The notes under the pieces were generated by a model. It made no database searches. It worked only from the letters and a program-made list of their open reading frames with translations, and was not told the origin of the DNA. A DNA stretch of 64,000 nucleotides. It comes from an uncultured Verrucomicrobiae bacterium (GTDB taxonomy: Bacteria; Verrucomicrobiota; Verrucomicrobiia; Chthoniobacterales; UBA10450). Positions 13,096 through 34,600 of the stretch are shown piece after piece. The position numbers were made by a program, and so were the translations under genes. Every line of letters begins with the position of its first letter. Within the stretch, counting starts at the first letter, position 1. The stretch covers positions 224,001 through 288,000 of the forward strand of contig CAVSDR010000004.1 of NCBI GenBank assembly GCA_963726745.1. The letters run 5' to 3'.

Positions 13096-13131
13096 GATAG
13101 TGGGCTTGCAAATGTTCCAAGTGCGCGGGCA

Positions 13132-13443: not shown

Positions 13444-13444
13444 G

Positions 13445-18688: not shown

Positions 18689-21600
18689 CTACGGCAGGCG
18701 GTAGACTTCCACCAAGCCCACGCCGACGGCTCCGCCCTTCCCGCGCACGATCGCGGTGTAATTGCCGGGCGGCAGCGAAACGACCAGGGCCGATTCCCGC
18801 GGGTCTCCCGGAATAACGCCGGTTTGCGTGATCTCTGCCTCCTGGCTCTCCTGCCAGTCGTCGTTCAGCGTGACATTGCCGTTGCTGTCGTAGAACGATA
18901 GCGTCGTGTCCGGCAAGGGGTCGGCTACGCCCTGCCGCCCGAGCGACGGCCCAAGCGCGCGCAGCAAAACATTCCGCCGCCCACTGCCGCCGTTGACGAT
19001 GAACCCACCGATCATGACGTTGTCGCCGTTTTCCACGCGAGTGCGGCTGGAGACGTTGGCCAAGGTGGCCCGGGCGGACGGATCCAGATCGTAGACTTCG
19101 ACCAGGCCGACGCCGCTCGTGCCATCCTGCCCGCGCACGATCGCGGTGTAACCGCCCGGAGCGAGGGTCGCGACGATGGCCGCTTCTCGGTCAAAATGTG
19201 GCGGCAAAGTGCTCGCTTCGATCTCCGCCTTTTGATTTTGCTTCCAGTCGTCGTTGAAGATGACTGAGCCATCCGGCTGGTGCAGTTCGAGCGTGGGGTT
19301 TTCTAAAAAACCGCTGACGCCATGGGTTCCAAGCTCCGGACCCAACGCGCGAAGCAACACTTTCTTCGGCTCGGCCCCAGTAATGATGAAGCCCGCAATC
19401 ATCACATTGTCCCCCGTCTGCACGCGACCGCGGGTGGAAATATTGCGCAGCTCTGGAAACGGGGTGGGCGTTGGGGTGGGCGTTGCAGTCGGAGTGGGCG
19501 TAATCGTCGGGCTCGGCGTCGCAGTCGGCGTGGGCGTTGCAGTCGGTGTGGGCGTTGCAGTCGGAGTGGGCGTCGCGGTCGGCGTGGGCGTCGGCAACGG
19601 CGGGGCTGCGAGCGTCACCACGTTGCTCCAGGGCGAACTGAGCGAGGGACTGTCGGCTTTAATTCGGAATTCGTAGCTCTCGTTAGGCACGAGCGCATTA
19701 TCGGCAAAGGAGGTCGCGTTCTGCGCGATGCTGGACGAGACGTCTTCCCAGTATGCCGCCCCGATGATTCGCCGCTGGAGGGTGAAACCCGTCTCGAGAG
19801 ATTGCTCGCTCCAGTTAAGGGTCGCGCCGGCCCCATCCGCCGCGCGGGTGCCGGAGAGAGCGGGCGCGGGCATGGCGGCCGGGCCGGCCAGCGAGAAAAA
19901 TCCGATGGCCGCGCCGACCTGCGCCACGAGCTTGTCGGTAGTGGAATTGTAAGCGCTCACGGTGGTGTCGCTCGGCATTCCGTAGGCAATCACGCCAGTC
20001 TCGGTGAGGTAGATATTCTTTTGCCCGAAGGCGTAGCGGCCATCTTTGCTCGCGGCGTAGATAAAGTCCCGCAGATTGGTCACGCCCACGAGGTTGGGAT
20101 CGTAGGCTTCGCCGTTCCAGAAAATGCGGCTGCCATCTTCCGATGCCACAACGACGCGCGAACCGTAGTAGCCGTAGGGATTGATCCGAGCAGCGCCCAG
20201 TTCGCTGAAGCGATCGCCGGTCAGGTCGAGTTTATGCAATTGGGCGCCCGAAGAGTTGTCGTCCCCGTGATAATAATAACGACCGGTCGGATCGGTCGCG
20301 CCGCCGCCCTGGCGCTGGAAGCTATTGGCCAGTTTCGTTCCCGCGTTGGTGTCGAAAATCGAGACATTGATCCACTGATCATACTCCTCCACGATGACCC
20401 GCCCCGCGCCGCTGGCGGTCACGCGAAAGACATCGTTGCTCGACGAGCCGACCGCGCCCGCCGGACTGAATCCATAGGTCCGCGCGAGCGCGAAGGAGGC
20501 GCGGTCCACCGCGAGCAGGCTGCCGCCCTTCCAATTCGGGACGTAGATGCGGTTTTCCGGTAAATGCAGCGCCAGATCCGTCACGGAATTTCCCACCGCC
20601 AGGACCCGCGTCACCGCCTGGCTCGCGCTATCGATCTCCAACAAGTAGGCCACTGTCGGAGTAACCGAAGGGTCTTCACTCACGCCGTAGACCATGGCCG
20701 ACGATCGATCTGACTTCAGGATGGTGAGCTTTAGCGGATCGACCCGCAGTTGCACCGGAATGGAAAAGGGCCCGCCCGAGGAACCAGCGATTCGGACAGC
20801 GCCATTGTAAGTGCCCGGCGCCAGCTGCCCGGCGTTCAGGACCACGCGCAAGGTCGCCGGGGTGACCCCGCTGGTTTGCACGAACGTGATCCACGGTTCC
20901 GCCGCCGAAGCCTGCCACGCCTTCCCCGTGCTGCTCGAGTCCAGCGCGATCGGGATCGTGTGATTGGTGTGCCCGCGCACGGTCGCCGTGATGATTTGCG
21001 CCGGGCTGGCGGAAATATCGGACACCGTGAAATGGTAGACATCGCTGCGCGAAGTCTCATGCGCCGTCACCGTATCGATCCGCCAATAATAGGTCAGCCC
21101 AGCGGTCAACGGCGTGCCCAGGGTGAACTCCGGCGTGCGCGTTTCGCCGAGAAAACTGGGCGAACCCAACCCGGCCATCTGGACCGCACTCTCGGAAGTT
21201 CCGAGATAGATTTGATATTTCTCGGCCCCGGGCAGGGCGGACCAGCGCAGGCTCGCCGGCGGGAGCACGATGGAGCCATTGGCCGGTGAGAGTGTCCGCT
21301 TGAGAATCACGTCGCCGACTGCAGTGGTCAGGTTCACCGTGCCCAGGACGTGCTGCGTGGGATGGTAATAAACCAGCCGCGCATAGTCCGCGGTGATCGC
21401 CTGGACGCTGCTGGCGACCGGCAGATCGTAGACTTTGCTCCCACTCTGCACTTCGTAGATCGCCGTCTTGGTGGCTGCGATTTCACCGCCATCGCTGATC
21501 GAGTAGACCGGCGAAGGGAAACCGGATTGCGTTTGCGTAACCGCGTGCGCCAGCACCGCGAGCTGCTTTACGAAAGCCAGCCGGCCATCATTGCTGATCA

Positions 21601-22573
21601 GCACCGGCGTATCCAATGGGTCGCGCGAAAGCGTGGTCGGATACGTCGAAGTGGTCGTCTCCGCCGGCGTGAGCAGGCCGTTGGCTGCCACATTATAACG
21701 CGCGATGTAGGAACCCGCCCAGCCCGCCGTCCAGCCGTATTGCACCCAGCCGACCAGCGTCCCGCGATCCGGCGTGAGCGCAAAATCGCCGCAGCCGTAA
21801 TTATTGCTGCCACCGATGTAAACCGTCTGCAGGACCGTGCGGGTCGCCCGATCAAACACGCGCAAAGCCGGCGCCCACTCGCCGTCGGTATAGTAAAGAA
21901 TGTTCCCGCTCCCGACCTTGAGGTTCGCGCTCGTGTCGCTCTGACCCCACTCCGTGTAAGCGGGCAAGGCAATCGTCTCCTTCACCGCCCACGTCTCCAG
22001 GTTGATCACCGTCAGGGCGCGGTCCACGCTGTTGATCACGAACAACTCCGAGCCATCGTTCGAGACCGCCAGATCGGTCGGCTTGTTCCCGACGGTCACG
22101 CTCCCGAGGAGTTGCGCGTTAATCGGATCGTAAATCAACACCGCGCCGCGCAGCAGCCCGTTCTGGTGCACCGCGTAAACCCGCGAGCGAAACGGGTCAG
22201 CCAGCAATTTCACCACATTGAGCTGCGACACCGCCGCGCGCACAAAGAACGTCCGCGTATCGCCCCCCTGGGTCGCTGTGATCGTCGCCGTGTAGGAAGC
22301 ATTGATCAGCCCACTGGTGGCAAAACTGAGCCGCACACTCCTGCCCGCCGCATCCACCGAAGGCGTCACCCAGGCTGCATCCGACTGCACCCCGAGCGCG
22401 CCGTAATCGAAAGTGCCGGCGGCGTTGATCGGCACCCGCACGTCTGCGTGATTGGCCGGCGGCGCCACCACCACATCCACCTGCGAAACCGCGAAAGTGA
22501 AAGGCTCGCCCATGGCCCCGGCGCAGATGAGGAAAGAAGCCGAGACCAGAGAGAAGAAAGATGCGGCTTTCAT
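18689..22573 (-). CDS. Large secreted protein: BACON-like/YVTN beta-propeller units, FN3, Pro-Thr linker, tandem 'NISTR' C-terminal domains
   Basis: Signal peptide MKAASFFSLVSASFLICAGAMG; 'SDAAWVT' and 'AAEPWIT' BACON-like motifs; 'TVGNKPTDLAVS'; WSEQ...YEFRIKA FN3; C-terminal LRNISTRGRVQTGDNVMIAGF repeated as LANVSSRTRVENGDNVMIGGF. Confidence 0.85.
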   Translation of the reverse strand: MKAASFFSLVSASFLICAGAMGEPFTFAVSQVDVVVAPPANHADVRVPINAAGTFDYGALGVQSDAAWVTPSVDAAGRSVRLSFATSGLINASYTATITATQGGDTRTFFVRAAVSQLNVVKLLADPFRSRVYAVHQNGLLRGAVLIYDPINAQLLGSVTVGNKPTDLAVSNDGSELFVINSVDRALTVINLETWAVKETIALPAYTEWGQSDTSANLKVGSGNILYYTDGEWAPALRVFDRATRTVLQTVYIGGSNNYGCGDFALTPDRGTLVGWVQYGWTAGWAGSYIARYNVAANGLLTPAETTTSTYPTTLSRDPLDTPVLISNDGRLAFVKQLAVLAHAVTQTQSGFPSPVYSISDGGEIAATKTAIYEVQSGSKVYDLPVASSVQAITADYARLVYYHPTQHVLGTVNLTTAVGDVILKRTLSPANGSIVLPPASLRWSALPGAEKYQIYLGTSESAVQMAGLGSPSFLGETRTPEFTLGTPLTAGLTYYWRIDTVTAHETSRSDVYHFTVSDISASPAQIITATVRGHTNHTIPIALDSSSTGKAWQASAAEPWITFVQTSGVTPATLRVVLNAGQLAPGTYNGAVRIAGSSGGPFSIPVQLRVDPLKLTILKSDRSSAMVYGVSEDPSVTPTVAYLLEIDSASQAVTRVLAVGNSVTDLALHLPENRIYVPNWKGGSLLAVDRASFALARTYGFSPAGAVGSSSNDVFRVTASGAGRVIVEEYDQWINVSIFDTNAGTKLANSFQRQGGGATDPTGRYYYHGDDNSSGAQLHKLDLTGDRFSELGAARINPYGYYGSRVVVASEDGSRIFWNGEAYDPNLVGVTNLRDFIYAASKDGRYAFGQKNIYLTETGVIAYGMPSDTTVSAYNSTTDKLVAQVGAAIGFFSLAGPAAMPAPALSGTRAADGAGATLNWSEQSLETGFTLQRRIIGAAYWEDVSSSIAQNATSFADNALVPNESYEFRIKADSPSLSSPWSNVVTLAAPPLPTPTPTATPTPTATPTPTATPTPTATPSPTITPTPTATPTPTPTPFPELRNISTRGRVQTGDNVMIAGFIITGAEPKKVLLRALGPELGTHGVSGFLENPTLELHQPDGSVIFNDDWKQNQKAEIEASTLPPHFDREAAIVATLAPGGYTAIVRGQDGTSGVGLVEVYDLDPSARATLANVSSRTRVENGDNVMIGGFIVNGGSGRRNVLLRALGPSLGRQGVADPLPDTTLSFYDSNGNVTLNDDWQESQEAEITQTGVIPGDPRESALVVSLPPGNYTAIVRGKGGAVGVGLVEVYRLP
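19461..19594 (-). repeat. Pro-Thr-Ala linker tandem repeats (about 18-bp units)
   Basis: Encodes PTPTPTATPTPTATPTPTAT...; degenerate gtgggcgttgcagtcgg units. Confidence 0.9.
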
Positions 22574-22676: not shown

Positions 22677-23714
22677 TCACGGACTGGTGACGTAGCGCTC
22701 ATAGGCCGCCGCGTCGTAAACCAGGTCAAGCGTCGGCACGAGCTGGAATTCGCGGCCGCCGAATTTGCGTTTGAAGACGCTGAAGTCCCACCAGGGATGC
22801 TCCGGGTTGTCCGCTGGTGAAATGCCCCAGAAGTCATACCAGGCGCAGCCGCGCGCCTTCGCTGCGCGCATGATTTCCCAATGGAGAAGATACGGCGCCA
22901 TCAGCTGCCGCTGCTCGCCTAACGAGCCGCCGTAAAAGTAAGTCGCCTTCTCGCCAAAGAAAATGACCACGGCCGCGGCCAGGCGTTTCCCTTCGTGCTC
23001 GGCGAAGAAAAAGCTGCCTGTTTTTGCCGTCGCCAGCGTCTCGTGCAGGGCCTCGAAGTAGCTATCCGGTTTTTCGCTCATCGGCTGGCGCGCGGCCGTC
23101 TCGCGGTAGATCGCGAGGAAATCAGCCAGCGCTTTGGCGGACGAATCTTCAGCCACGGTTACGCCGTGTCGCTGGGCCAGGCGGATGTTGTAGCGGCCTT
23201 TCGGCTTCATTTGCACGAGGATTTCCACTTCGGGCGGCCGCAGATCCACACAGAGGGTCTCGCGCGGCTCGAGAATCCCGTCGCTCAGCGGTGCGACCGG
23301 TTGCCATCCGCGGACGAAGGCTGGCAAAGTCGCCCAACGCGGCTCGATTCGCAGATGGCTCACGGGAAGCGGCGCGCGCGCGCGCTCCGCTGCGACTGCG
23401 TCGAGCACTGCGGCGAAGATTTGTTCCGCGGCGCCTTCATCAGGCGGCAGGATGGGCCCATCCGGGATGTAGAGGAAACACTCCCCTGGCACGCAGGAGA
23501 ACTTCATTACCAAAGCGCCGCCTAAAATCTTGCCCCCGGACCGCAGAACCGCGCCAAAATGCTCGTAACCTGCGTCGCAGCGAAACTCGGCCCACCACGA
23601 AGTCTGCATGAAGCCGCCATCGGCGCGCGCTTCTACGAACCGATCCCAGGCAGCCCAGCGATTCGGCGGCGCCACCGCGACCGGAGCTTCGGCAAGAGCG
23701 GACGAGTGGTTCAT
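22677..23714 (-). CDS. FemAB/FemX-family (aminoacyl-tRNA-dependent) peptidyl transferase
   Basis: FMQTSWW; VDLR..EILVQMKPKGRYNIRLA; YFYGGS; APYLLHWEIM..AK.RGC.WYDFWGI; FKRKFGG. Confidence 0.88.
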   Translation of the reverse strand: MNHSSALAEAPVAVAPPNRWAAWDRFVEARADGGFMQTSWWAEFRCDAGYEHFGAVLRSGGKILGGALVMKFSCVPGECFLYIPDGPILPPDEGAAEQIFAAVLDAVAAERARAPLPVSHLRIEPRWATLPAFVRGWQPVAPLSDGILEPRETLCVDLRPPEVEILVQMKPKGRYNIRLAQRHGVTVAEDSSAKALADFLAIYRETAARQPMSEKPDSYFEALHETLATAKTGSFFFAEHEGKRLAAAVVIFFGEKATYFYGGSLGEQRQLMAPYLLHWEIMRAAKARGCAWYDFWGISPADNPEHPWWDFSVFKRKFGGREFQLVPTLDLVYDAAAYERYVTSP

Positions 23715-23722
23715 GCGCGCGC

Positions 23723-24673
23723 TTAAGTGTCCGGCACGTAGGCCACGCTGACCTCGAACTTTACCGTGACCTGTTTTACCTGCCGCCGGACGGGCACGAC
23801 CTTGTGCAGCGCCGGGTTGAAGTAATCCTTCAGCATCGGAGGCCGCGGCCCGTCGACGTAATAGGCAGCCGCTTCTTCGACCACGGTATCGGCGATGACC
23901 TCGAGCTCGTCGCGCGTGGCCGCATGCTGGACCACGCAGGGAGCGTGGGAGTAGCCGAGCGCGCGCAAGGCGTAGGCGCGATGGCTGCCATTGTTCAAGA
24001 TGAGCCGGTCGCCGGAGCGAATGGCGTTGAGGAAATTTGAGCCAAAGCCGACCGCCGCGCCGACCACGCCCACGAGCGTGCCGGCGGTGCCCTGGCCGCG
24101 GAGGTGGCGCGGCTCGAGGCGCAGGGTGCGGAGAAAACGAAGGTCGTTAGACGGCGAGATGAAGATGAAAGTGTCGCGGCCGATGCGCTCCCAGGTGACC
24201 GGCGGAGACGGATGATCGTAGGGCAGGCAGAAGCGGAAAATTTCCTCCGCAGTGGGCGTCGGGCCGAGGCGTTCGAGGAGCCGGCGGACGAAGGCGAGAT
24301 CGATGCGCTTTTGATAGACCACCAGCCGGTCGAGCTCGACAAACGCGACCTCGGTCGGCACGGAGTTGAACCCGCGCTGGACCAATGGATCGCTCAAGAA
24401 CTGGAGCAAGAGCGGCTCGTAGGTGGCATCGACCGGGACCGGTTTCCGCCCGGGATGATCGGCCCAGTGGGCCTCGGATTTTTCGAGCTCCGCGACGCGC
24501 TCACGCGCAGCCTTCCACTCGGCGATGAGGACCGCTTCCTCCTCGGGCTCGACCGCCTCGTGCTGGACGAAATGGAGGAAGCTCTTGAGCGACGGACGGC
24601 CCGTGAGGTAGATGGTGTCATCGGCCGAGGCCGTCGGGGGGCGCTGGGCGATTGGTTTGGTTTGCTGGTGAAT
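23723..24673 (-). CDS. Hypothetical protein with ParB/sulfiredoxin-like motif; start uncertain (ATT at 24673 or TTG at 24409)
   Basis: RLILNNGSHRAYAL resembles the ParB/Srx 'xxDGxHR' motif; 'VELDRLVVYQ' upstream. The frame is open and protein-like for 88 codons upstream of the ORF-track start. Confidence 0.7.
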   Translation of the reverse strand: MHQQTKPIAQRPPTASADDTIYLTGRPSLKSFLHFVQHEAVEPEEEAVLIAEWKAARERVAELEKSEAHWADHPGRKPVPVDATYEPLLLQFLSDPLVQRGFNSVPTEVAFVELDRLVVYQKRIDLAFVRRLLERLGPTPTAEEIFRFCLPYDHPSPPVTWERIGRDTFIFISPSNDLRFLRTLRLEPRHLRGQGTAGTLVGVVGAAVGFGSNFLNAIRSGDRLILNNGSHRAYALRALGYSHAPCVVQHAATRDELEVIADTVVEEAAAYYVDGPRPPMLKDYFNPALHKVVPVRRQVKQVTVKFEVSVAYVPDT

Positions 24674-24704
24674 GGCGGTGGCTCCAGGGGGTTGAAGTTG
24701 CTGT

Positions 24705-27008
24705 CTACCACCACGACCAAAACTCGACGCGAAAGGTGCGCGAGATCCGGCGGGTGATGAGATCGATCAAGCGCCGCTGGCCGCATTCGATCTTGGCCAT
24801 GCCGCTCATGCCGGGCTTGAGCAGGCCTGCGCGATTGTCGATCTCGGTGGTCACGAGAATGGTGTTGGCGTTCTTTCCGCTCTCCGGCACGAGCCCGCCG
24901 GCGGGGCCGCTTTTGCCGCCGGAGGCGAGCGCCGTCCCGCCTACGCCCTGCACGGTGGTGGCAATTTCAGTAACTGTGCCGGGGAAGACGCGGTCGGGAT
25001 AGGCGCGCACTTTCAGCGAAACCGTCTGGCCCTTGCGGACATCGGCGATTTCCTTCTCGGGGATGGCCATCTCCGCGGTGATGACCTTGAAGTCGAAGAC
25101 CTTCGCGATCAGGTCGCCTTTGTGGACGAGCTGGTGGCGCATCTCGCTGAGCTGGCGCGAGGGGGTGGTCACGATGCCGGCGGCGGGGCTGAGGACCTTG
25201 GTGAGGCTCAGCTGACTCTGAAGATAGGCGCGCTGGGTCTCGAGGCTGCGGACCATCGCGCGGAGCGCCTCGATTTCCTCCGGGCGGCTTCCGGCCTGGA
25301 GGAGCTGGAGTTTCTTCGAGGCTTCCGCGAGATCACTTTCGCTGCTCGCGACCAGGCGCGCGCTTTCCTCGTAATCGAGCGCGGAAAGAAGCTGCTGCTC
25401 GTTCAACTGCCGGTAACGCTCGAGGCGCGACTGGAGGAATTTCAACTGCTCCTGGTGACGCGCGACGGTGGTTTGCGCGAGCTGGATTTCCTCAAGGCGT
25501 GAGCCGGCTTCGAGGAGCCGCAGGCGGGCTTTGTTCTCGGCCACCTGCGCTTCCACTTTTTGCAGCTCCGCCTGGAGGTCGCGCCCGAAAAGCGCGGCGA
25601 TCGGCTGGCCGGCTTCCACGCGCTCGCCTTCGTCGACGTAGACCACCTCGATGATGCCCTCGATCTCCGCCCGCACGTCGGCGTTGTGGATCGGAAAGGC
25701 GCTCACCGGCCCGGCGACGCGGAGCTCCGCCTTGACTACAAACAGCAAGATGACGACGGCGGCGGCGAGGAGGATTTTCGGGAAACGACTCTTCAGGAAA
25801 CGGGAACGCCGGCGCGGCTCCGAGCGGGCGCGCTTCCCGTGGCCAAAGAGCCGGCGGAATTTTCCCTGGAAACGCACGCCGACGAGCCCGGCGAAAAGAA
25901 AGAAAGCCAGCCGCTGTCCCTGAACCACGAGGTGCTCGCCGATGAGCAGGGCCACGTAAGCGGTGAAGAGAAACGAGAAGGTCCAGGCGATGATCCCATA
26001 GATGAGAAAAACGCGGCGCTCCTGGCGCGCCACTTCCGGGAGCCCGGCGCGCCAGCCACCGAGGGTGCGCAGGAAATCGCCCAGGTAACGGAAGGCGCGC
26101 TTGCGCAAATTTACGATCCCGAGGTAATCGCTGAGCAGGTAATAGCCATCGAGCTTGATCAACGGATTGAAGTTGAAAAACGTCTTGATCCCTGAGGTGG
26201 CCATGACGATGAGCGCGATCCGGCTGATCCAGGTATCAGAGTCGGTCACGCGCCAGCAGAGCGTGGCCAGGGCCCAGATGAAGAGCTCGAGATACGGACC
26301 GGCAAACGACACCCAAAGCCGCTTCCCCTTGGAAAAAAACCACGCGTCGCTCACGTTGCAGAAGAAGGCCGGCTGGAAATAAATCAGCATGAAACCCATC
26401 TCGCGCACTTCGCCGCCGAAGTGTTTGCAGGCGAGCCCGTGGCCAAACTCGTGCGCCGTGGTCACGGCAAAGGCGACCGCAATCAGAAGCGGCAAGGTCG
26501 AGAGCCGATAGAGCTGCGAAGCATCGCCCACGATCTGGTCCCAGTGGAACGCGGAGACGGCTGCGGCGGCGAGAATGGTAGCCGCGGAAAAGACCAGGAA
26601 ACGCGCGGTGAAGGCAAATCGGACCCGCGGATAGAGCCGGTTAAGCAGCCCGTCGGGGTCGAAGAGGCGGAAGCGCAGCGTCATCAGGCCGCCGTCGAGC
26701 CGTTTCGGTTTCGCCGGCGCGCGGTGACCTTTGGCTCCGTTCTCGAGCAGGCTGTTTTTAGCCAGCGTTTTGACAAACGCATTCAGCTCTTCCGGCGGGA
26801 GCGTGGCGCCAAATTTATTCTCCACCCGGTGATTGACCACGTGCAGCGGCGTTTCGCCGTCGAGCTGCTCGGCGATGAAGCGTTCCGCCGCGCGCAGGCG
26901 GTAGAATTGCCGGCTTAGCGGATCCTTGATCACGAGCACGGTGCCCTCGGCCGTGCTTTGCAGACGGCGGTCGAGATCGCCGCGCAATTTCGGCAGGGTC
27001 GCGATCAT
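24705..27008 (-). CDS. PqqD/RRE-like domain + M50 site-2 metalloprotease + HlyD-type membrane fusion protein
   Basis: N-terminal VIKDPLSRQFYRL...QLDGE...FVKTLAKNSLL (PqqD-like); AHEFGH and NFNPLIKLDGYY (M50); lipoyl-half motifs, coiled coil and LKPGMSGMAKI (HlyD). Confidence 0.9.
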   Translation of the reverse strand: MIATLPKLRGDLDRRLQSTAEGTVLVIKDPLSRQFYRLRAAERFIAEQLDGETPLHVVNHRVENKFGATLPPEELNAFVKTLAKNSLLENGAKGHRAPAKPKRLDGGLMTLRFRLFDPDGLLNRLYPRVRFAFTARFLVFSAATILAAAAVSAFHWDQIVGDASQLYRLSTLPLLIAVAFAVTTAHEFGHGLACKHFGGEVREMGFMLIYFQPAFFCNVSDAWFFSKGKRLWVSFAGPYLELFIWALATLCWRVTDSDTWISRIALIVMATSGIKTFFNFNPLIKLDGYYLLSDYLGIVNLRKRAFRYLGDFLRTLGGWRAGLPEVARQERRVFLIYGIIAWTFSFLFTAYVALLIGEHLVVQGQRLAFFLFAGLVGVRFQGKFRRLFGHGKRARSEPRRRSRFLKSRFPKILLAAAVVILLFVVKAELRVAGPVSAFPIHNADVRAEIEGIIEVVYVDEGERVEAGQPIAALFGRDLQAELQKVEAQVAENKARLRLLEAGSRLEEIQLAQTTVARHQEQLKFLQSRLERYRQLNEQQLLSALDYEESARLVASSESDLAEASKKLQLLQAGSRPEEIEALRAMVRSLETQRAYLQSQLSLTKVLSPAAGIVTTPSRQLSEMRHQLVHKGDLIAKVFDFKVITAEMAIPEKEIADVRKGQTVSLKVRAYPDRVFPGTVTEIATTVQGVGGTALASGGKSGPAGGLVPESGKNANTILVTTEIDNRAGLLKPGMSGMAKIECGQRRLIDLITRRISRTFRVEFWSWW

Positions 27009-27126
27009 GGGAGCTGGGAGCGCATCGAACAAGGAGCCGAACTTTTCCGCGTGGAGGAAGGCCGCGAGCCGGGGCCGGCAGCCTTCCCGTCACGTGGAGG
27101 TGACCCCACCGGCCACGGGAGAAACT

Positions 27127-27156
27127 CCCGCTGCGGGTGGTCCATCTAGCAGCGGG
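27127..27156. promoter_or_regulatory. Stem-loop directly after the small peptide gene
   Basis: Perfect 8-bp inverted repeat CCCGCTGC...GCAGCGGG, 2 nt from the stop codon; no long U-tract. Confidence 0.55.
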
Positions 27157-27158
27157 CG

Positions 27159-27326
27159 CTAGTGCTTGGAGCCTTTGCTGCCCTTGCTTCCTTTGGACCC
27201 CTTGCTGCCCTTGGATCCTTTGCTGCCTTTGGACCCTTTGCTGCCGGATCCGCCGCCGCCGCAGCCGAGCCGGCCGGGGGCGATGCGTTGCTCTAGTTTC
27301 TCCAGTTCAAGATTTAGATGATTCAT
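27159..27326 (-). CDS. 55-aa putative precursor peptide: LEQRIAP leader + (Gly-Ser-Lys)9 core (not in ORF track)
   Basis: Hand translation MNHLNLELEKLEQRIAPGRLGCGGGGS(GSK)9H*. RBS GAAAGGAA just upstream of the ATG. Repeat units vary only synonymously (GGC/GGA/GGG, AGC/TCC, AAA/AAG). Confidence 0.9.
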   Translation of the reverse strand: MNHLNLELEKLEQRIAPGRLGCGGGGSGSKGSKGSKGSKGSKGSKGSKGSKGSKH

Positions 27327-27542
27327 CTAATTCCTTTCGCTTGAGCTTGGCGTGTTCACCCGGGCCGCACTCGCGGACCGAGCCTTGCAGTGTGCCAGGC
27401 TGCAAATTGGGGGGTGTGAAAGCTTTCGCCTTCGCGGCGATTAAACCAACCGCGAAGAAACCGGACAAGCCTTTTTTGCCCGCGCGCCGCCTTTAGTCGT
27501 TAGGCGCTTGCGTGCGAGAACCTTCCGCGGAACGTCTGCCGC

Positions 27543-28659
27543 GTGTTTGAACTGCTGCAAACCGATCCCGCGTCGAAAGCCCGCCGCGGCCGCCTAACGA
27601 CCGCGCATGGTGTGATCCAGACGCCGGCGTTCATGCCCGTGGGCACGCAGGGGTCGGTCAAGGCCGTAAGTCCGCGCGAACTCCGGGAGTTGCAGACGCA
27701 GATCCTCCTCGGCAACACCTATCACCTTTTCGTCCGGCCGGGCCTGGAGATTATCCGGCACTTTGGCGGGCTCCATCGTTTCATGAATTGGGACGGGCCC
27801 ATCCTGACCGACAGCGGCGGTTACCAGATCTTCTCGTTAGCCAAGATCCGCCGGATCACCGAGGAAGGCGCGCGCTTCCAAAATCATCTCGACGGCACGC
27901 CCACCTTCATTTCGCCGGAGATCGCGATGGAAATCCAGGCCTCGTTAGGCAGCGACATCGCGATGGTGCTGGATGAATGCCCGCCCTGGCCGTGCGAACG
28001 CGACTACGCCGCGCGGAGTCTGGAGATGACGGCGCGCTGGGCGCGGCGCAGCCAAGAGGCGCCACATGCGGAAGGCCAGTTGATCTTCGGCATCGTGCAA
28101 GGGGCGACGTTTCGCGGATCTGCGCCGGGAGGCGGCGGAGGCGACGGTCGCGCTCGGGTTCGATGGCTATGCCATCGGCGGGGTGAGCGTGGGCGAACCG
28201 GAGCCGGAGATGATGCTCGCAGTGGAAAACAGCGAGCCGTTTCTGCCGAAGGATAAGCCGCGCTATTGCATGGGCCTGGGGACGCCGCCGCAGATCGTCG
28301 AGCTGATCGCGCGCGGCGTGGATATGTTCGATTGCGTGCTGCCGACCCGCCTGGCGCGGCACGGGACGGTCTTCACCGCGGGCGGCACACTGAACTTGAA
28401 GAACGCGGAGTTCGCGCTCGACCGGGGGCCGATCGAAGACGGCTGCAGTTGCCCGGCGTGCGCGGAATTTTCGCGCGGCTACATCCGGCATCTGCTGAAA
28501 GCGGAGGAGATCCTCGGGCTGCGGCTGGTCACGTTGCACAACCTGCATTTTTATCTCGGCCTCACCACGCGTGCGCGCGTCGCGATCGAGGATGGAACCT
28601 TCGCGGAGTTCCGGCGGGAGTTTGTCGGCAACTACGCGGTCCGCGCGGCCGAGTCCTGA
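27543..28659 (+). CDS. tgt: tRNA-guanine transglycosylase (frameshift near 28110)
   Basis: FMPVGT, NTYHL, LTDSGGYQ, GIVQG; then MGLG, DMFDCVLPTR, CSCPAC, HNLHFY. Confidence 0.97.
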
Positions 28660-31600
28660 GATCGACGGCGAAACCGGCGGCGCTGCGAATAGGCGAGCCC
28701 GAGGAAAGCGAGTGCGCCGGCCGCATAGGTCCCCGGTTCCGGCACCGCGGAGATCGGCGTGAGCTCGAAGAAGCCGCCGCCTAAATCAAATTGCGCCGCG
28801 CCCGGTCCGTAGCCATTGAAGGCGAAGCTCGCGAGGTTCCCGAGCTGGCTGGAATTAAAGATCAGCCGATCGGTGCCGCTATTGCCCACCGTGGCCAGGA
28901 GGCCGGTCCAGTTCAGGATCGTGACGAGATTCCCGCTCGGGACGAAGCTGGCAAAGCTGAGCACCCCGACCGCGCCCGTCCCGAAATCCAGCTTGGAACC
29001 GGCGGCCGTCAGGGTGAGCGCGCCCATGCCCGCACTGTTGGCTGCGCCTTCGTTGAACGCGCCTTTGGCCAACGTCCCGCCGGCGAGCGTGACCGAGGCC
29101 GCGTTGTTGATCTGGTTGCTCGCCCCGAGCAAGAGCGTGCCGCCGGAGTTGACCGTGATCGCGGTGGTCGAAGCGAGGGCGCTGCCCGAGGTGGTGCCGA
29201 GGAGCAATGTGCCCGCCTCGACCGTGGTCGTGCCGGTGAAATTGTTTAAGCCGGTGAGAGTGAGGACGCCGGTCCCGCTTTTCGCAAGGCTGCCCGTGCC
29301 GGTGAGGACGCCGGAGAAAGTCGTGCTCGTGCCGTCGCCCCCGGCGGTGAGCTTGGTCCCGCTACTGCCGACCACACCGAGGCTGATTGTGCCCGCGCCG
29401 GCGACGGAGCCGACGGTTTCGCTGTTGTCGTTCAAATCGAAGGTCGCGCCGCTGGCCACGACCACGGCCGAGTTATCGTGAATCCGTTCCGCGGCGGCGA
29501 GCTGCAGGGTGCCGCCGTTGATGGAGGTCGCGCCCGTCCGCGTGCTGCTGCCGGCCAGGATGAGCATGCCCGCGCCGATCTTGGTTAACGAACGCGCGCC
29601 GCCGCTTTCGGAGAGCGTGCCGTTGAGGATGAAGCTGTCGTCCAGGAGCTGAATGCCGATGGTGGAGTTCGAAGCGAGGACGATGTTGCCATTCCAGATG
29701 TTGTCGCCGGCGGCGACATCGATCGCGCCCGCGCCAGCCACGCCGCTGCCGTTGAGGGTGATCGTCTCGTTCCCCACGGTCAGGCCGGCAGGATCGATGA
29801 ACTGCAAGGCCGCGCCATTCGCGACCACGGTTTCGTTCCCCACCCCGGTGGCGCCGAGGGCCGCGGAATTTTGCACGCGAAGCACTCCGGTGTTGATCGA
29901 AGTGAGGCCGGTGAAAGTGTTGGCTGCGGTCAGGGTCAGGCTGCCGTTGCCGTTCTTGCTCACCCCGCCGCTGCCACTGATGACGCCGTTTGCCTGGATG
30001 TCGCCCGCGCCGGTGAAAGCGAGCGCGCGCGTCCCGAGCGAAATGGCGCCCACGCTCAGCAGTCCGCTATCGGAGCCGATCGTGCTGTCGCCCGCGAGGG
30101 TGATGCCGCCGGTCCACGAGCCGCCCGCGGTCGCGCGCAACGCGCCTGCGCCCGTGACCCCATTGCCCTCGAGGGTCAGGCTTTCGCCGTTGATCGAGAT
30201 CGCGCCGCCGAGCCGCAGCTCCGCACCCGCCATCACCGTCGTTCCGCTCGCGGTGCCGCCGAAGGCGCTCGCGTTTTGCGCCAGCAAGACGCCGGCATTG
30301 ACGCTCGTTAGGCCGGCGAAATTGTTCGCGCCGGATAGCGTGAGCGTGCCGCTGCCAGTCTTGGTGAAGCCGCCCGGGCCGCTCAGGATGCCCGAGAAAG
30401 TCGTGTCCAGGTTATTCGTCCCGGCCGAAAGCAGGGCGCTGCCTAACGACACTGCGCCCGCACCGCTGAGCGAGCCGACGGATTGGTTGAAGCTGTCCAA
30501 ATCGAGCGTCGCACCACTGGCCACGCTCAGGTCCGTCGCGCCCGCCAAAGCGCTGGCTAAACCAAGGCGCAGCGTGCCGGCGTTCACATTGGTCGCGCCG
30601 GTGAAAGTGTTCGCACCGGAAAGAGTCAGCACGCCGGTGCCGGTCTTAACGAAGGCACCGCTGCCGGTGAGGACACCGGAATAGGCGGTCGAAGAATTAT
30701 TCGCGCCCGCCGTTAGCGTCCCGGCTCCGAGTTGAACCGCGCCGCTGCCCGCGAGCGAGCCGATGCTGTCGCTGTATCCATTCAGCGCAAAGGTGGTGCC
30801 GCTCGCCAGGGTGAGGGCCGAGAGACTGGAGACGCCGTTCGCGCCCGCAAGCTGAAGCGTGCCGGCGCTGACTGTTGTCGCGCCGCTGTAGCTGCCGGCG
30901 GCGCTGAGCGTCAGCATGCCGGTCCCGGTTTTCGTCCAGCCGAACAAGCCCGAGATCGCGCCCAGGGTGGCGTTCGCCGAGGAGGTATCGAAGGTCGCAG
31001 CGCCGCTCAGCGTGACCGCGCCCAGCGTGAGGCCGGCGCCGTTGCTGCCGGTAAAGCTGAGCGTGCTCGCGCCGATCGCCAGCGTGCCGAGAGCATGAGT
31101 CACGGCCGGCGTGGTGCCGGTGAGGCGGCTGGCGTCGATCGTGGAATTCGCCGTGACCGTGAGATCGTTTGCGAAGTTGGTGCTGGCATCGTTGCGCAAG
31201 CGCAAGCTGCCGCCGTTCAGAGTCACACGGCCGCGATTGATCGCATCTCCGAGGGACTGCGCATCGCGCAGCTCGACGCTGCCGGCATTGATCTGGAGGA
31301 CGCCGTCAAAGTTTGCGTTGCCGCTCGGCACCACGAGCGCCCCGGCACCTTTCTTAAAGAGCGTGCTCGCGACGTTGCCGGTGACGAGAACATTGGCCGC
31401 GTTGCCGAGGGTGAGGGTTTGGCCGGAATTGATATCGAGCGTGCCGGCGAGATCCGCGGCCACGCTGAAGACCTTGGTCGCATCGGCCACGAACCCGGCG
31501 GTCACGTTGAGCGTGCCGCCGTTGAAAGTGACGTCGTTGCCGACATTCCCGAGATTGTTTTCCGCGCTGATCTGGAGCACGCCGCCGTTGAGGAAATTTG

Positions 31601-34600
31601 TGCCCGTGTAGATGTTCGCCCCGGAAAGAATGAGGAGCCCGCTGTCGGCTTTAGTCAGCGAGACGAGGCCGTCATCGGCGTCGCCGTAGAGGCCATTCGC
31701 GCCGGCGTTGTTGATGATGCTGGAAGAAATCGTGAGCGAGTCCGAGCCGTTGACCGCGATCGAGAGCGCGCCATTTGCGATCCCGCCCGCGGTCAACCGC
31801 CCCGCGCCGGAGATGGTGCTCGCAAGCGGGCTGCTCTTGATCAAGCCGCCGCTGGAGAGGTTGAGGGTGCGGGTGGCATCGCTGCCGAGATCGAGCGTGG
31901 CGATATCGTTCAAGACCAGCGCCTGGTTAGTCGTGGTGCCCGCGCCGGTCAAAGTGAACCCCGAAGCCTGGGCCAGGCTGGTCAGCTGCACCGTGGTCGA
32001 GGTCGCGTTCACGTTGACGCCATCGAGGCCGAGGTAGTAGGCGCTGAACGCCCGGATGCCATCCGCGGAGTACTCCGCAAAATCGCTCCCCACCCGGGCC
32101 CAGCCGCCGATGAAACCATTAGCCAGCCCATTGATGAAAATGTGCGGGCCGTCGCTCCCGGTGCCGAGCGCACCGCCTAACGAGTTGAAGTTGACCGAGG
32201 CGCCGCTGGTGATGGTGCCGAGGGCGGCAAAGATCAACGAGGAGCTGGTGCCAACGCCGCCCTGGTGGACCACGGTGACACTGGAAGCGCCGCTGAGGGC
32301 GTTGAGCGCGCCGACTGTCTCCGTCGATCCGGTCGCATCCGAGATGAAACGAAAGGTGCCGCCGCCGAGCCGGATCGCGGCGGTATTGGAGATGCGATCC
32401 GCGTGTTCCCCACCGCTGTTGTCGAGCGTCAGGGTGGTGCCGCTGTTGATCGTGAAGCTGGTCGCGCTCGCCGCGCTGCCGTTGTTCCCGGCGAGGAGCA
32501 CGGCGCCCGCGTTTAACGTCACGGTGCCGCTGAAGGTATTCGCGCCGGAGAGCGTAAGCGTGCCGAAGCCGGATTTCACAAACGCACCCGTGCCGCTGAT
32601 CGCGCCGGAAAACGCGGTCGAGGAATCGTCCGTCCCGGCATTCAAGGTAGCGGTCCCGAGGAGCACGCTCCCGGCGCCCGCGAGCGAGCCCACGGTTTCG
32701 CTCTTGCTGTTTAGATTGAAAGTCGCGCCCGCGCCGACCGTGACGGCCGAGGTGTCGGCAATCACATTGGCCACGCCGAGCGTGAGCGTGCCGTTGCTGA
32801 TCGTGGTCGCGCCGGTGTAAGTGTTCGCGCCGCTGAGGGTGAAGATCCCGCTGCCTGTTTTCGTGAGGCCGCCGCTGCCGCTGATGATGCCGGAAAAGGT
32901 CGTGGCCGAATTATTCGCTCCCACGCTCAAGATTCCGCTCCCGAGCGTGACGCTGCCGCCGACTCCCGCGAGCGAGCCGATGGCTTCGTCGTAATCGTTC
33001 AGGTCGAAAATCGCCCCGGTCGAAAGCGTGACCGCGGAAGCGGCCGAGATGGAATTGTCCACGCCCGAGGCGCAACGTGCCGGCGCTGACCGTGGTCGCG
33101 CCGGTGTAGCTGTTCGCGCCGGCGAGGGTCACCACGCCGGCAGTGGTTTTCGTTAGGCCAACCGGGCCACCGAGGATGACGCCGATCGCGCCGCTGCTGA
33201 CCGCGTAGTTGGCGTTGCTCGTGAGCGTGGAGCTGCCGCTGCCGGTGATGCTGCCGCTGGTGAGCGTGACCGTGCCGACGGTGTCGCTGTGATCGGCCCC
33301 GAGATCGAGCGTGCCGCCATTGATCGTGACGCCGCCGCTGCCGAGGGCATCGCTCACTCCGTAGGCCAGGGTGCCGGCGCTCACGGTGGTGAGACCGCTA
33401 AACGTGTTTGCGTTGCTCAGCCGGACGGTTCCGCCGCCGATTTTCGTCAGGCCAAAGGCACCCGAGATGATCCCGGCGAAGTCCACTCCGCCGCCTGTCG
33501 CAGCGGTGACCGTCAGGAGATGGCTCAGGTTGATCGGGCCGGAGAAAATGTTGATCCCGGTGGTGTTCTGGCCGCCGAGCGTGAGCAATCCCGTGCTGCC
33601 GGCGCGGACGTTGATCGTGTTTGCGATCGTGCGCCCGGTCGCGGTGCCGAAAAGCAGGCTGGCCGCGTTCGAAGTCGTGATCGTGTCGCCTAAATTCACC
33701 GCCGCGGAGCCGAGCGCGCCATCGACCACGAGCGGGCCGTTCAAGAGGTCGGTCGTGCCGGTGTAGGTATTGGCGCCGCCGAGATAAAGCGTGCCCAGGC
33801 CAGTCTTGACCAACCCGCTGCTGGCGGTGCCGTCGGAGATCACGCCATTGACGATGAAATCGTTATCCCCGGTGACGGCGTTGTTGTTGATCAGGAAAGT
33901 GCGGGTGCCGTTCAAGCCCAGATTGGCGCTGACCGTGGTTACAGCGGTGGTCAAGGCGGTGGCGGTGACGTTGCCGCCGAGATCGAGCCGCCCGCTGCCG
34001 ATGATGCTGCCGCCAGTCGTGGTCAGCGCGCCGATGCGTTCGGTGAAGCTTTGCAGGTTGAGGACGCCGTCCAGCTTGAGATTGACCGTGGCCGCGTCGG
34101 GGACCTGATCGGCCGCATTCCATTGCACGATCGCGGAACCGGCCGCGCCTAACGAATCGCCGATCGTAAGCGTGGTGCTCGCAAAGGCATTGACGCCCGC
34201 GGTCTTGGCCAGGAGGAGCGTGCCATCGTTTACGATCGAGCTGCCGGAGTAGGTATTCGCCGCCGTCCCGCCGAGCGAGAGCGTGCCCGTGCCACTCTTG
34301 GTCAGGGCGAATGCTCCGCCGACCACGCCGCCGAACGCGACCGAGTTGTTGACCGTGAGCGTGACCGCTTTCGTCATCGTCACCGCGTTCGTGAAAGTGA
34401 AATCGTTCGCGCCGGAATAGGTGGTGTTACCGCCGAGGGAAACCAGGTTTCCGATCGTGCGGGCCCCGCCGCCGGCCTGGAGCGTGCCGGTGGTAAGGGT
34501 CAAGGTGCCGGTCCCGGCCGCCGCATCATTCCCCAGCACGAGCGTGCCCGCGCTCAGCGCGGTGCCCAGCGTGTAGGTGTTCGCGTTGTTCAAGACCAAG

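Follow-up and report, generated by a model that had tools for sequence, protein, structure and literature searches.

The window, the 64-kb stretch of DNA analysed here, carries four genes on its minus strand, whose arrangement and coordinates agree with those given by a sequence-only reading. One of them encodes a 55-aa peptide, and the ribosome-binding site that this reading had called for the peptide gene was found as an AAGGA located 5 nt before the ATG. The features of the locus are:

27332..27336, minus strand: Shine-Dalgarno-like AAGGA, 5 nt ahead of the precursor ATG (sequence reading)
27159..27326, minus strand: precursor peptide gene, 55 codons and stop (ORF and sequence reading; leader shared with related loci)
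27276..27326, minus strand: leader of 17 residues, MNHLNLELEKLEQRIAP (alignment of 33 precursors)
27165..27245, minus strand: core repeats, nine Gly-Ser-Lys (sequence reading, copy comparison, pattern search)
24705..27032, minus strand: fusion of RRE, M50 intramembrane metalloprotease and HlyD adaptor (Pfam, NCBIfam, profile, motifs, homolog starts)
26739..26975, minus strand: PqqD-like RRE domain, approximate bounds (profile against PDB sequences)
26439..26453, minus strand: HEFGH zinc-binding motif in a membrane helix (motif and hydropathy)
26145..26174, minus strand: NFNPLIKLDG, second site-2-protease motif (motif)
24708..25784, minus strand: membrane anchor helix and periplasmic HlyD/membrane-fusion domain (PF16576, PF13437, hydropathy profile)
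23723..24673, minus strand: protein of an unnamed family, modelled with a ParB/Srx fold (homolog alignment, structure model, fold comparison)
23978..23989, minus strand: G-S-H-R of the nearly invariant NNGSHR motif of the ParB-like protein (family alignment and profile-to-PDB alignments)
22677..23714, minus strand: FemAB-family aminoacyl-tRNA-dependent transferase, 345 aa (PF02388, PDB FemX matches, cassette linkage)

A promoter scan returned 0 promoter-like sites, and a terminator scan returned 11 terminator-like sites against 6.2 expected. The hairpin region 3' of the precursor stop folds mildly better than shuffles (z -2.06). A PEP-CTERM-type protein is encoded nearby in the window. In three soil DNA runs of one study, 5–9% of the words were present.

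The precursor reads MNHLNLELEKLEQRIAP GRLGCGGGGS (GSK)x9 H (55 aa) and thus contains both the leader and the nine Gly-Ser-Lys repeats already recognised by the sequence-only reading. A degenerate pattern of three GSK codons gave seven overlapping matches, all within the repeat and none elsewhere in the 64 kb, and 0 matches in 100 shuffles. The 9-base copies are only 65% identical as DNA, with serine switching between AGC and TCC and the glycine and lysine codons also varied, indicating that the repeat is conserved as protein rather than the result of a recent DNA expansion. Alignment of 33 precursors revealed invariant leader residues M1, L8, L11, E12, R14, A16, and P17, whereas all positions past P17 are variable and the cores are hypervariable and of low complexity. 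Many cores of related loci are rich in His, Cys, and Asp, and the C-terminal residue, a His in the window's peptide, is K, S, G, N, D or others in its relatives. The predicted co-occurrence of such leader peptides with homologs of the neighbouring proteins was borne out: of 49 related loci that could be assessed, 45 have an ORF with this leader ahead of the fusion gene, and every one of the 47 leader-motif matches falls on the coding strand. Within the genome that the window comes from, the leader pattern matches the precursor alone. The locus therefore has the small precursor with conserved leader and variable core that is expected of a ribosomally synthesised, post-translationally modified peptide (RiPP). 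An HxsA-type precursor (His-Xaa-Ser repeat system) was considered and rejected, as NF038313 scored 29.3 against a cut-off of 55 and matched the low-complexity repeat only.

The second gene encodes a fusion protein of 775 aa if read from TTG 27032, or of 767 aa from ATG 27008, and because homologs begin at the latter, translation probably starts there. All three parts that had been read into this protein were recovered. A profile built from 44 N-terminal domains matched, among PDB sequences, the lasso-peptide RRE TfuB1 (E=0.003), PqqD (0.15), and TbiB1 (1.5), with matches extending over the whole domain. HEFGH at residue 186 and NFNPLIKLDG at residue 279 both fall within hydrophobic segments, giving the site-2 protease combination of HExxH in a membrane helix and NxxPxxxxDG (here NxxPxxxLDG) in a later helix. 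The NCBIfam model daptide_HExxH (NF041824) matched residues 27–385 at 7.7e-66 and 222.7 bits, below its equivalog cut-off of 300, and the Pfam M50 gathering scores were missed (PF02163, 16.3 vs 27.2; PF13398, 16.9 vs 26). The HlyD domain passed its Pfam cut-offs (PF16576, 67.8 vs 30 bits; PF13437, 55 vs 22.2). Together, the RRE profile, the protease motifs, and NF041824 provide the recognition element and dedicated leader peptidase of a RiPP system. Modelling of the precursor with the RRE, as the sequence-only reading had proposed, favoured the pairing but was graded as weak support: the complex scored 0.36 and the best of three controls 0.00, on a scale whose mark is reached by 116 of 157 solved complexes and 2 of 215 mismatched pairs, and at values up to 0.60 by just 18 of the 157 solved complexes and both passing mismatches. 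The runs share at least 90% of contacts, with a partner pLDDT of 50–52.

For the third gene, the ORF tool places the start at TTG 24409, yielding 228 aa, whereas homologs have ~300–340 aa. The frame remains open and conserved 5' to ~24720 without any ATG, GTG or TTG; conservation sets in at ~24673, the first canonical start is the one at 24409, and ATT 24673 or ACG 24634 could serve as the start instead. Homolog length and the open, conserved upstream frame led us to reject the 228-aa model and point to a true product of ~303–316 aa with a non-canonical or mutated start. The protein has no match in Pfam, NCBIfam, PADLOC or PHROGs. The window's copy hits no Pfam family at E≤5, and the Pfam ParB/Srx models hit none of 111 family members at E≤0.1. 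The family is large: it comprises 1,158 clusters at 50% identity (E≤0.001), and a word-index search gave at least 1,518 at the 90% level. In a protein atlas, it falls into unnamed clusters only, the nearest named one being Parb-CE (18% of members, score 0.77), which serves as a lead only. Among 11 longer relatives scanned, 10 are without a Pfam domain and one has glycosyltransferase and methyltransferase matches.

A first structure model of the ParB-like protein, based on 12 close homologs, was unusable (pLDDT 41) and was replaced by one from a 111-row alignment (pLDDT 95.7, pTM 0.89). Comparing this model with 48,161 chains by VIA-align showed that ranks 1–8 are all of the ParB/Srx fold at Z 5.2–7.9, middling by the tool's own scale (sulfiredoxin, Srx, 7.9 and 7.7; Atu1540, 7.5; SerK, 6.6; PadC, 5.9; SbnI, 5.8; pNOB8 ParB-N, 5.2; KorB, 5.2), with 79–108 residues aligned at an rmsd of 2.6–4.3 and the next match at Z 3.9. 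Foldseek against the PDB gave no match at E≤0.001, and its top 13 matches, as well as most of the 30 listed, belong to the same families. In addition, 10 of 14 weak matches of a sequence profile against PDB sequences align on the G-x-H/R-R box, and in the alignments the family's nearly invariant NNGSHR motif coincides with the phosphate-binding box of ParB, Noc, SbnI, and SerK. Given the Foldseek result, the fold assignment is based on VIA-align together with the agreement among the weak matches; the confident model predicts a ParB/Srx fold, in line with what had been proposed from the letters.

Enzymatic activity of the ParB-like protein is uncertain, because the fold also acts as a nucleotide switch or scaffold, as in ParB and PadC. 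One alternative is thus that the exported peptide stays un- or barely modified, acting as a signal, metal-binding or matrix peptide, and that the ParB-like protein is a nucleotide-dependent switch, adaptor, immunity or regulatory factor gating the protease-exporter. In PadC and ParB, the fold operates without substrate modification; it is also found in CTP switches and scaffolds (10.1101/2025.10.10.680097), and the many His/Cys/Asp-rich cores would bind metals unmodified. We nevertheless regard this alternative as unlikely: there is almost no variation in the box that aligns with the phosphate-binding motif of SbnI and SerK, and the ParB-like protein, with 55–65% identity across phyla, is more conserved than the fusion that it would regulate.

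Across 79 related genome loci, the ParB-like gene lies directly behind the M50-HlyD fusion in 60; four further loci are cut at a contig end, and the remaining 15, at 38–45% identity, lie elsewhere. A tree of 92 ParB-like rows placed the 76 fusion-linked rows on one side (SH-aLRT 91), with an inner node of 73 rows at SH-aLRT 99. The relatives at 38–45% identity have unrelated surroundings, including restriction-modification, Fic, and HTH-regulator genes, indicating that the wider family is not tied to peptides. Genes for DUF4062 and STAND-NTPase proteins also adjoin these distant relatives. The cassette is common in soil metagenomes, in uncultured Verrucomicrobiota, Acidobacteriota, Gemmatimonadota, and others, and in the window's own phylum the ParB-like gene was found in one of 301 sampled genomes, that of the window. 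Neighbourhood clustering of the 79 loci, for which gene calling was crude (longest ORFs, with antisense shadow ORFs giving one false 'family'), showed no recurring transporter, outer-membrane or regulator gene; no inner-membrane transporter, outer-membrane channel, peptidoglycan or mobile-element gene is conserved beside the cassette.

The company of the distant relatives (restriction-modification, Fic, DUF4062, STAND-NTPase genes) and the patchy spread over many phyla, with 1/301 genomes in the own phylum as for mobile functions, would also suit a module for conflict or defence, with the peptide as a toxin or decoy instead of a secreted natural product. This explanation appears very improbable, as no PADLOC or PHROGs model matches any cassette protein, no mobile-element genes are conserved alongside, and the logic of leader, RRE, peptidase, and adaptor, together with a variant that has a bacteriocin-type exporter (see below), is typical of secreted peptides.

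The fourth gene had been taken for a FemX-type transferase; membership of the FemAB family held (PF02388, 1.1e-37, 130.3 bits vs a gathering cut-off of 24), but the curated equivalog cut-offs were missed by far, both for FemX (NF047883, 78.5 vs 500) and for the PEP-CTERM-associated FemAB (TIGR03019, 57.2 vs 260.35). In the PDB, it matches FemX of S. aureus (1.5e-16) and W. viridescens (3.7e-15), with FKRKFGG aligned to FKKVWG of the S. aureus protein. These FemX matches, the weak PEP-CTERM-linked match, and the PEP-CTERM-type protein encoded nearby leave room for an explanation in which FemAB and the ParB-like protein serve the cell envelope through peptidoglycan or lipid-linked precursors, with the peptide and protease-adaptor as mere neighbours or a regulatory supplement; peptidoglycan precursors are the substrates of the best-known FemABX enzymes. 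Besides the missed cut-offs, the absence of a conserved peptidoglycan gene nearby, and the Lys-containing cores of the FemAB-bearing loci (see below), linkage makes this explanation very improbable. Among metagenome loci that carry a FemAB relative with at least 50% identity, 19 of 30 also have the fusion, the ParB-like gene or both, and most of the loci without cassette genes have <1.4 kb of flank. In contrast, none of 45 loci with relatives below 45% identity has either gene. Close homologs of both the ParB-like protein and FemAB thus accompany such peptides, contrary to the possibility, raised with the sequence-only reading, that homologs occur mostly without them.

FemAB is present in about a third of the genome loci and is accessory, whereas the ParB-like protein is the universal partner, also with Lys-free cores. 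All FemAB-bearing loci scored have Lys-containing cores: 21 of 21 cores at FemAB-positive loci, and 6 of 16 assessable ones at FemAB-negative loci, contain at least 8.5% Lys. A Mann-Whitney test of Lys content on 16 vs 16 loci, kinship ignored, gave p=7e-4. The state of FemAB changes six times on the tree, with one pair on supported branches, so that the link between FemAB and Lys is without independent support.

In a distant variant (loci L108/L109), a peptide with a double-glycine leader and a G/S/K/N core is followed by ParB-like, FemAB, an HxD...H protein, HlyD, and a C39-ABC exporter. Because this variant joins the enzymes to a different leader and exporter, the tailoring enzymes appear to follow the core and not the leader. 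The joint move of the ParB-like protein with FemAB and the HxD...H protein also fits a core-acting enzyme better than a partner of the M50-HlyD fusion, as the gating alternative would have it. The HxD...H protein has no Pfam match and no PDB sequence match, and one query did not find it in the window's genome (94.7% complete); from its motif, it is a putative oxygenase.

The observations comprise gene content, domains, fold, conserved linkage, leader/core architecture, and reuse of the enzymes with another leader and exporter. We consider it reasonably probable that the cassette is a leader-guided peptide maturation and export pathway, a RiPP-like system of an undescribed family. A literature search found no description of such a pathway in print, which agrees with the earlier statement that no described pathway of this composition is known. 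We suggest the following course. The 55-aa precursor would be translated in the cytoplasm, and its invariant 17-residue leader would dock on the PqqD-like RRE, the N-terminal part of the fusion on the cytoplasmic side, for which the computed complex offers weak support. The ParB/Srx-fold protein, the one enzyme common to all cassettes, would then modify the core using a nucleoside triphosphate. O-phosphorylation of Ser/Thr would be the most likely reaction, since serine kinases are the nearest relatives of the fold with enzymatic activity, and no reactive residue type other than Ser/Thr is shared by all core types. In the Ser/Lys-rich subfamily, which includes the window, FemAB would move amino acids from aminoacyl-tRNA to the core, most likely to Lys epsilon-amines and alternatively to Ser hydroxyls or the new N-terminus. 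By analogy with MpaP, whose leader also ends in Pro, the M50 site-2-type protease would cut the leader off after Pro17, and the fused HlyD domain would convey the product through the periplasm, its probable exit being an outer-membrane channel whose gene lies elsewhere. Matching the two enzymes to the two reactive residues of the repeat, as the sequence-only reading did, applies to the Ser/Lys-rich subfamily only, since FemAB is accessory and the ParB-like protein also accompanies Lys-free cores.

Ser phosphorylation, Lys aminoacylation, and a comb-branched product are what we infer. That the cassettes represent a new RiPP class, defined by a ParB/Srx-fold peptide kinase and yielding an exported polyampholyte 'comb', is a doubtful further step. 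Such a comb would carry phosphorylated serines and FemAB-branched lysines, hydroxylated in some lineages by the oxygenase-like HxD...H protein, and, as a product of soil bacteria of many phyla, would parallel in bacteria the silaffin-type peptides that bind minerals or metals. It would also involve the first FemAB and the first ParB/Srx enzyme for which action on a ribosomal peptide is shown. If the proposed chemistry holds, ParB/Srx phosphotransferases and tRNA-dependent FemAB enzymes, neither of them known so far from such pathways, would enter ribosomal peptide tailoring, both targeting repetitive, intrinsically disordered cores overlooked by genome-mining tools, and the RRE-M50-HlyD fusion would give two-membrane bacteria a self-contained 'dock, cut and hand over' machine. 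As the cassette is common in soil metagenomes, its product may matter for soil mineral, metal or matrix biology. The large unnamed ParB-like family gains a modelled fold and a biological setting here.

Among known systems, diatom silaffins are Ser/Lys-rich repeat peptides, including a GSKGSK stretch, with phosphoserine and modified or hydroxylated lysines. They resemble the possible product of the predicted enzyme set by analogy only, being eukaryotic and without shared ancestry. SerK, SbnI (an O-phospho-L-serine synthase), and sulfiredoxin share the fold of residues ~99–285 of the ParB-like protein (Z 5.8–7.9), and SbnI and SerK the aligned G-x-H-R box. However, the ParB-like protein is extended N-terminally by ~100 residues and carries insertions within the fold, its activity is predicted, and the known substrates are free serine or a protein sulfinic acid rather than a ribosomal peptide. 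FemABX enzymes and the natural-product FemX-like aminoacyl-tRNA-dependent transferases VlmA, DhpH, DhpK, PacB, and Orf11 (PMC12945691) are alike in Pfam FemAB membership and FemX structure matches. The window's FemAB differs in falling below the FemX equivalog cut-off and in its linkage to a leader-peptide cassette, and the sections of PMC12945691 drawn on here give no member acting on a ribosomal precursor peptide.

The double-glycine bacteriocin systems, with a C39 peptidase-ABC exporter and HlyD-type accessory, have exactly the leader and exporter type of L108/L109, and their leaders show the same amphipathic Leu/Glu pattern as that of the window. In contrast, the window's cassette is without an ABC transporter, and its expected cleavage is by a zinc intramembrane protease after Pro rather than by a Cys protease after Gly-Gly. 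The epipeptide M50 proteases (EpeP/YydH/LiaK type) and pearlin TglG/TmoG are likewise M50 proteases of the membrane that serve RiPP maturation specifically; for EpeP, a dual role in cleavage and export has been suggested (PMC10885120). EpeP/TglG-type proteases are, as far as that source describes them, without RRE or HlyD fusion, and their partners are a radical SAM epimerase and PEARLs, respectively; the NCBIfam model RiPP_HExxH_LiaK matched our fusion at 3.9e-10 and 39.8 bits, far below its cut-off of 225.

The daptides (MpaA/DapA, MpaP/DapP) share an N-terminal RRE fused to a site-2-type metalloprotease, a short leader with a conserved block ending in Pro, and a small precursor whose gene immediately precedes that of the protease. 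MpaP is described as an RRE-dependent intramembrane peptidase, and the daptide leader motif ends at P(-1) (10.1101/2023.03.08.531785). According to the same source, daptides have an invariant precursor C-terminal Thr and genes for a DUF-RRE protein, an oxidative decarboxylase, an aminotransferase, and a methyltransferase. In the window, by comparison, the protease bears a C-terminal HlyD adaptor, the precursor is without the invariant Thr, and the tailoring genes encode the ParB/Srx-fold protein and FemAB. No aminotransferase, methyltransferase, dehydrogenase or other daptide gene family recurs across the 79 loci. Daptide membership itself was rejected on NF041824 (222.7 vs 300 bits) and on the peptide's terminal His, and the best reading is that the cassette is related to daptides through its leader peptidase only.

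The sequence-only reading had described four co-oriented genes led by a 55-aa peptide, and this anatomy of the cassette proved right in its genes, shared orientation and domain assignments: a precursor peptide, an RRE-M50-HlyD fusion, a ParB-like protein and a FemAB transferase are all encoded on the minus strand.

27326..27159, minus strand: precursor gene, product MNHLNLELEKLEQRIAP-GRLGCGGGGS-(GSK)9-H

The sequence reads AAGGA 5 bases ahead of the precursor ATG. A degenerate pattern of three GSK codons matched the precursor seven times (overlapping matches) and occurred neither elsewhere in the window nor in 100 shuffles. Because the 9-base DNA copies of the repeat are only 65% alike and its Ser codons are AGC and TCC by turns, the perfect protein repeat is kept by selection on the peptide. 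A leader-pattern search of the window's genome returned one single leader of this type. Directly 3' of the precursor stop lies a GC-rich hairpin region (27095-27158, minus; folding z-score -2.06), which is not a clear terminator and could set the precursor-to-enzyme expression ratio.

The sequence-only reading had also proposed looking for such leader peptides beside homologs of the cassette genes, and they are there: of the 49 related loci that could be assessed, having 350 nt or more of sequence ahead of the fusion gene, 45 carry a leader-motif ORF there on the same strand, the four without one being L009, L035, L038 and L084. All 47 leader-motif matches in these loci fell on the coding strand and none on the opposite strand. 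Among 33 aligned precursors, hand-picked from 44 by dropping long or duplicate ones, M1, L8, L11, E12, R14, A16 and P17 are invariant and no position past P17 is, so that a conserved leader is joined to a variable core. Core types include Ser/Lys/His/Gly repeats (SKSHKS, GSKSSGSKS, GSKGSK), DLGIGIGIG...HSS and the Cys-rich CLSLGLP...SKSKSHESCSS. A large protein database held 69 small proteins of similar kind, all annotated as 'hypothetical protein' at best; those inspected, 21 in number, include a subfamily, MKHLNLELEKLEQRIAPGR[IL][NH]CGGGGSKGSK..., very near the window's peptide. The segment right after the leader (27246-27275), with its single Cys, is conserved as GR[IL][NH]CGGGG in this precursor subfamily (database proteins P0271-P0286), and many other cores hold Cys near their start (GGCGCG) or at their extreme end (KSC, NCCC). 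This recurrent core Cys hints at a further role, e.g. metal binding, thioether formation or lipidation.

The fusion protein probably starts at ATG 27008, where homologs and tblastn matches begin, and would then be 767 aa long. Its residues 27-385 match the NCBIfam model of the daptide intramembrane metalloprotease (7.7e-66), yet the 222.7 bits obtained fall below the equivalog cut-off of 300 bits, setting the fusion apart from MpaP, the leader peptidase of daptides. Both site-2-protease motifs, HEFGH and NFNPLIKLDG, lie inside hydrophobic segments, and a strong anchor helix at about residues 409-427 precedes the HlyD part, which scores above two Pfam cut-offs. The N-terminal domain had no Pfam match. 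A profile of 44 such domains (the window and 43 of 48 tblastn matches; L047 was left out for an in-frame stop, and L040, L037, L051 and L055 were excluded by hand without a test) gave seven matches in the PDB, among them the lasso-peptide RRE TfuB1 (E=0.003), PqqD (0.15) and TbiB1 (1.5), each of these three spanning the whole domain. Modelling the leader on the RRE domain, as had been suggested, partly favored the pairing: the predicted complex of domain and precursor reached a score of 0.36, the highest of three controls being 0.00, with at least 90% contact agreement between runs, but the tool's verdict was weak support and partner pLDDT was 50-52. Among solved complexes, 116 of 157 pass the mark for this score, as do 2 of 215 mismatched pairs, and scores of 0.60 or less comprise only 18 of those 157 complexes but both passing mismatches. 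The leader would dock on the RRE. MpaP has been described as an intramembrane peptidase that depends on an RRE, with a leader motif ending in P(-1) (10.1101/2023.03.08.531785), and by analogy the leader may be cut after Pro17. The product may then pass via the HlyD domain; EpeP, an M50 protease, is thought both to cut and to export (PMC10885120).

For the ParB-like gene, the start called by the ORF tool (TTG 24409, 228 aa) is ruled out by homologs of about 300-340 aa and by a frame that remains open and conserved as far upstream as about 24720. Ahead of TTG 24409, the conserved first ~88 codons of the gene hold no ATG, GTG or TTG (region 24409-24720, minus). By visual comparison of two N-termini, the ATG of a close relative (L005) appears to match ACG 24634, and ATT 24673 has GGAG 8 bases upstream; the gene either has a non-canonical start, lost its start codon recently or is misassembled at this point. 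The sequence analyzed here was 24673..23726 (316 aa), from the candidate start ATT 24673. It belongs to no family in Pfam, NCBIfam, PADLOC or PHROGs, and a Pfam scan of 111 members of its own family assigned none of them. This family comprises at least 1,518 clusters at 90% identity and, at 50% identity, 1,158 clusters at E<=0.001, 312 of them at E<=1e-30. A survey of the ParB-CTPase fold starts from matches to Pfam PF02195 (10.1101/2025.10.10.680097), of which the ParB-like family gives none.

The model obtained with 12 close homologs was unusable (pLDDT 41). An alignment of 111 rows (the window, 8 word-search proteins and 102 of 106 length-filtered representatives, with P0124, P0153, P0208 and P0242 dropped for partial coverage) yielded a model with pLDDT 95.7 and pTM 0.89. 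Structural alignment against 48,161 representative chains placed ParB/Srx folds at ranks 1-8: human and plant sulfiredoxin (Z 7.9, 7.7), Atu1540 (7.5), the free serine kinase SerK (6.6), PadC (5.9), SbnI (5.8), pNOB8 ParB-N (5.2) and KorB (5.2), spanning model residues about 99-285 and followed by 3.9 for the next in the list; Z values of 5.2-7.9 are middling by the aligner's own warning. Foldseek returned no match at E<=0.001, and most of its 30 listed rows, the top 13 included, were the same ParB/Srx-fold families. Searching the PDB with a deep profile gave 14 weak matches, 10 of which (E 0.2-1.4) were Noc, Spo0J, SbnI and SerK, all aligned on a nearly invariant NNG-S-H-R box. Based on the clean gap to the rest of the list and the agreement of three methods, the protein has the ParB/Srx fold, which it has in common with the serine kinases SerK and SbnI. 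We propose that it modifies the core in an NTP-dependent manner. With SerK and SbnI acting as serine kinases, and with Ser/Thr as the one reactive residue type that all core types share, phosphorylation of core Ser/Thr is our best guess. The main rival is that the protein is no enzyme but a nucleotide switch or adaptor; its structural neighbors count pNOB8 ParB-N and KorB beside the two kinases.

Linkage of these genes holds across genomes. In a ParB-centered scan of one genome per species, 60 of 79 loci have the M50-HlyD fusion directly upstream of the ParB-like gene and four more end at a contig edge; the remaining 15, whose ParB-like relatives are all at 38-45% identity, have unrelated surroundings. 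In a quick maximum-likelihood tree built on 92 rows (matches below 250 residues or with stops left out), the 76 fusion-linked rows are separated from the 16 others with an SH-aLRT of 91, and a node further in, uniting 73 of them, has 99. By record titles, the loci come from Verrucomicrobiota, Acidobacteriota, Gemmatimonadota, Bacteroidota, Ignavibacteriota, Eisenbacteria, Gammaproteobacteria, Nitrospirae and others, all of them metagenome-assembled, so that individual phylum labels may be wrong. Within the window's own phylum, 1 of 301 sampled genomes, the window's own, has the ParB-like protein. Neighborhoods of related loci contained no conserved transporter or outer-membrane gene beside the cassette.

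Some features of the surroundings were noted separately. One verrucomicrobial contig (L023) carries tandem pairs of M50-HlyD and ParB-like genes (3265-9142 and 11500-15283). The 38-45% relatives stand alone (L063, L065-L066, L068-L071, L073, L075-L080, L082) beside restriction-modification methylases, Fic, DUF4062, STAND NTPase, HTH, LysR or large secreted proteins, the last a large beta-helix protein in three marine gammaproteobacteria. In the window, the cassette lies between the genes of two very large secreted proteins (18689-22573 and 28632-33062, minus) that have no counterpart in related loci: one, 1,294 aa long, contains a Thr-Pro linker and matches fn3 weakly, and the other (1,476 aa) carries nine PATR autotransporter-type repeats along with a PEP-CTERM-like tail. 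The nearby tgt gene (queuine tRNA-ribosyltransferase; 27543-28659, plus) is broken into two ORFs that overlap and differ in frame, covering positions 2-181 and 206-355 of the Pfam TGT profile, a sign of a frameshift or a sequencing error around 28110-28190.

The FemAB protein matches PF02388 at 130 bits and resembles FemX of S. aureus (1.5e-16) and W. viridescens (3.7e-15), scoring far below both the curated FemX and the PEP-CTERM-FemAB cut-offs; the window's genome has one other FemAB-like match only, weak and on a different contig. FemAB is an accessory of the cassette: about 22 of the 60 cassette loci have it, placed either 3' of the ParB-like gene or in between the genes for precursor and fusion protein. 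In the reverse test, a metagenome scan of 75 loci seeded with FemAB, relatives at 50% identity or more sit with a ParB-like gene and/or fusion in 19 of 30 loci; most of the other 11 have under 1.4 kb of flank, and L100, L105, L106 and L156 may be genuine exceptions. Relatives below 45% identity had neither gene in any of 45 loci. Lys makes up at least 8.5% of the core in 21 of 21 scored FemAB-positive loci versus 6 of 16 assessable FemAB-negative ones (an earlier count gave Mann-Whitney p=7e-4, kinship ignored), an association undermined by relatedness, as the tree shows just 6 gains or losses of FemAB and an independent-pairs test had no power. FemAB may aminoacylate the core, most probably on Lys and less probably on a Ser hydroxyl or the new N-terminus; FemX-like enzymes of natural products include VlmA, DhpH, DhpK, PacB and Orf11 (PMC12945691). 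In ten loci, a ~225-aa protein with an invariant HxD...H...R always adjoins the cassette's FemAB gene.

L019:10098-10772, and loci L008, L023, L032, L034, L036, L037, L039, L054 and L067: HxD...H protein

By its motif, it is probably a 2OG/Fe oxygenase; it had no Pfam or PDB sequence match and was not found in the window's genome.

In the literature outside subscription journals, leader words matched only six texts, all unrelated and on fungi or pollen, and among the matches listed there was no paper on PqqD, M50 and HlyD with a precursor peptide in such a system or on FemAB combined with RiPP precursors, in keeping with the initial reading, to which no described pathway of this composition was known. 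The cassette is, as far as found, a real, conserved RiPP-like system undescribed in the searched literature, and the Ser/Lys chemistry proposed for it, now framed more sharply, is plausible.

The strongest argument for a division of labor comes from a variant on two contigs with an identical ParB-like protein, from an organism of lower GC.

L108:252-6858 and L109:1817-1984: variant cluster

Its genes encode, in order, a LuxR-type regulator, a 55-aa peptide, the ParB-like protein, FemAB, the HxD...H protein, HlyD and a C39-peptidase ABC transporter; a TolC-like gene fragment lies upstream with the LuxR-type regulator. The peptide joins a double-glycine leader of the classical type to a G/S/K/N core (MRNLDSSELEQVYGG-SGNKGGSKNKGGSKNK...NCCC), and identities are 41% for the ParB-like protein, 54% for FemAB and 32% for the HxD...H protein to its other members. 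The enzymes are therefore reused as a module: because the same set serves a similar core behind a different leader and exporter, ParB-like protein and FemAB would act on the core, and RRE-M50-HlyD would form the leader-specific processing and export module. In double-glycine/C39-ABC systems, leader and exporter are well understood, and in this variant they are paired with the ParB-like/FemAB set and a core similar to those of the cassette.
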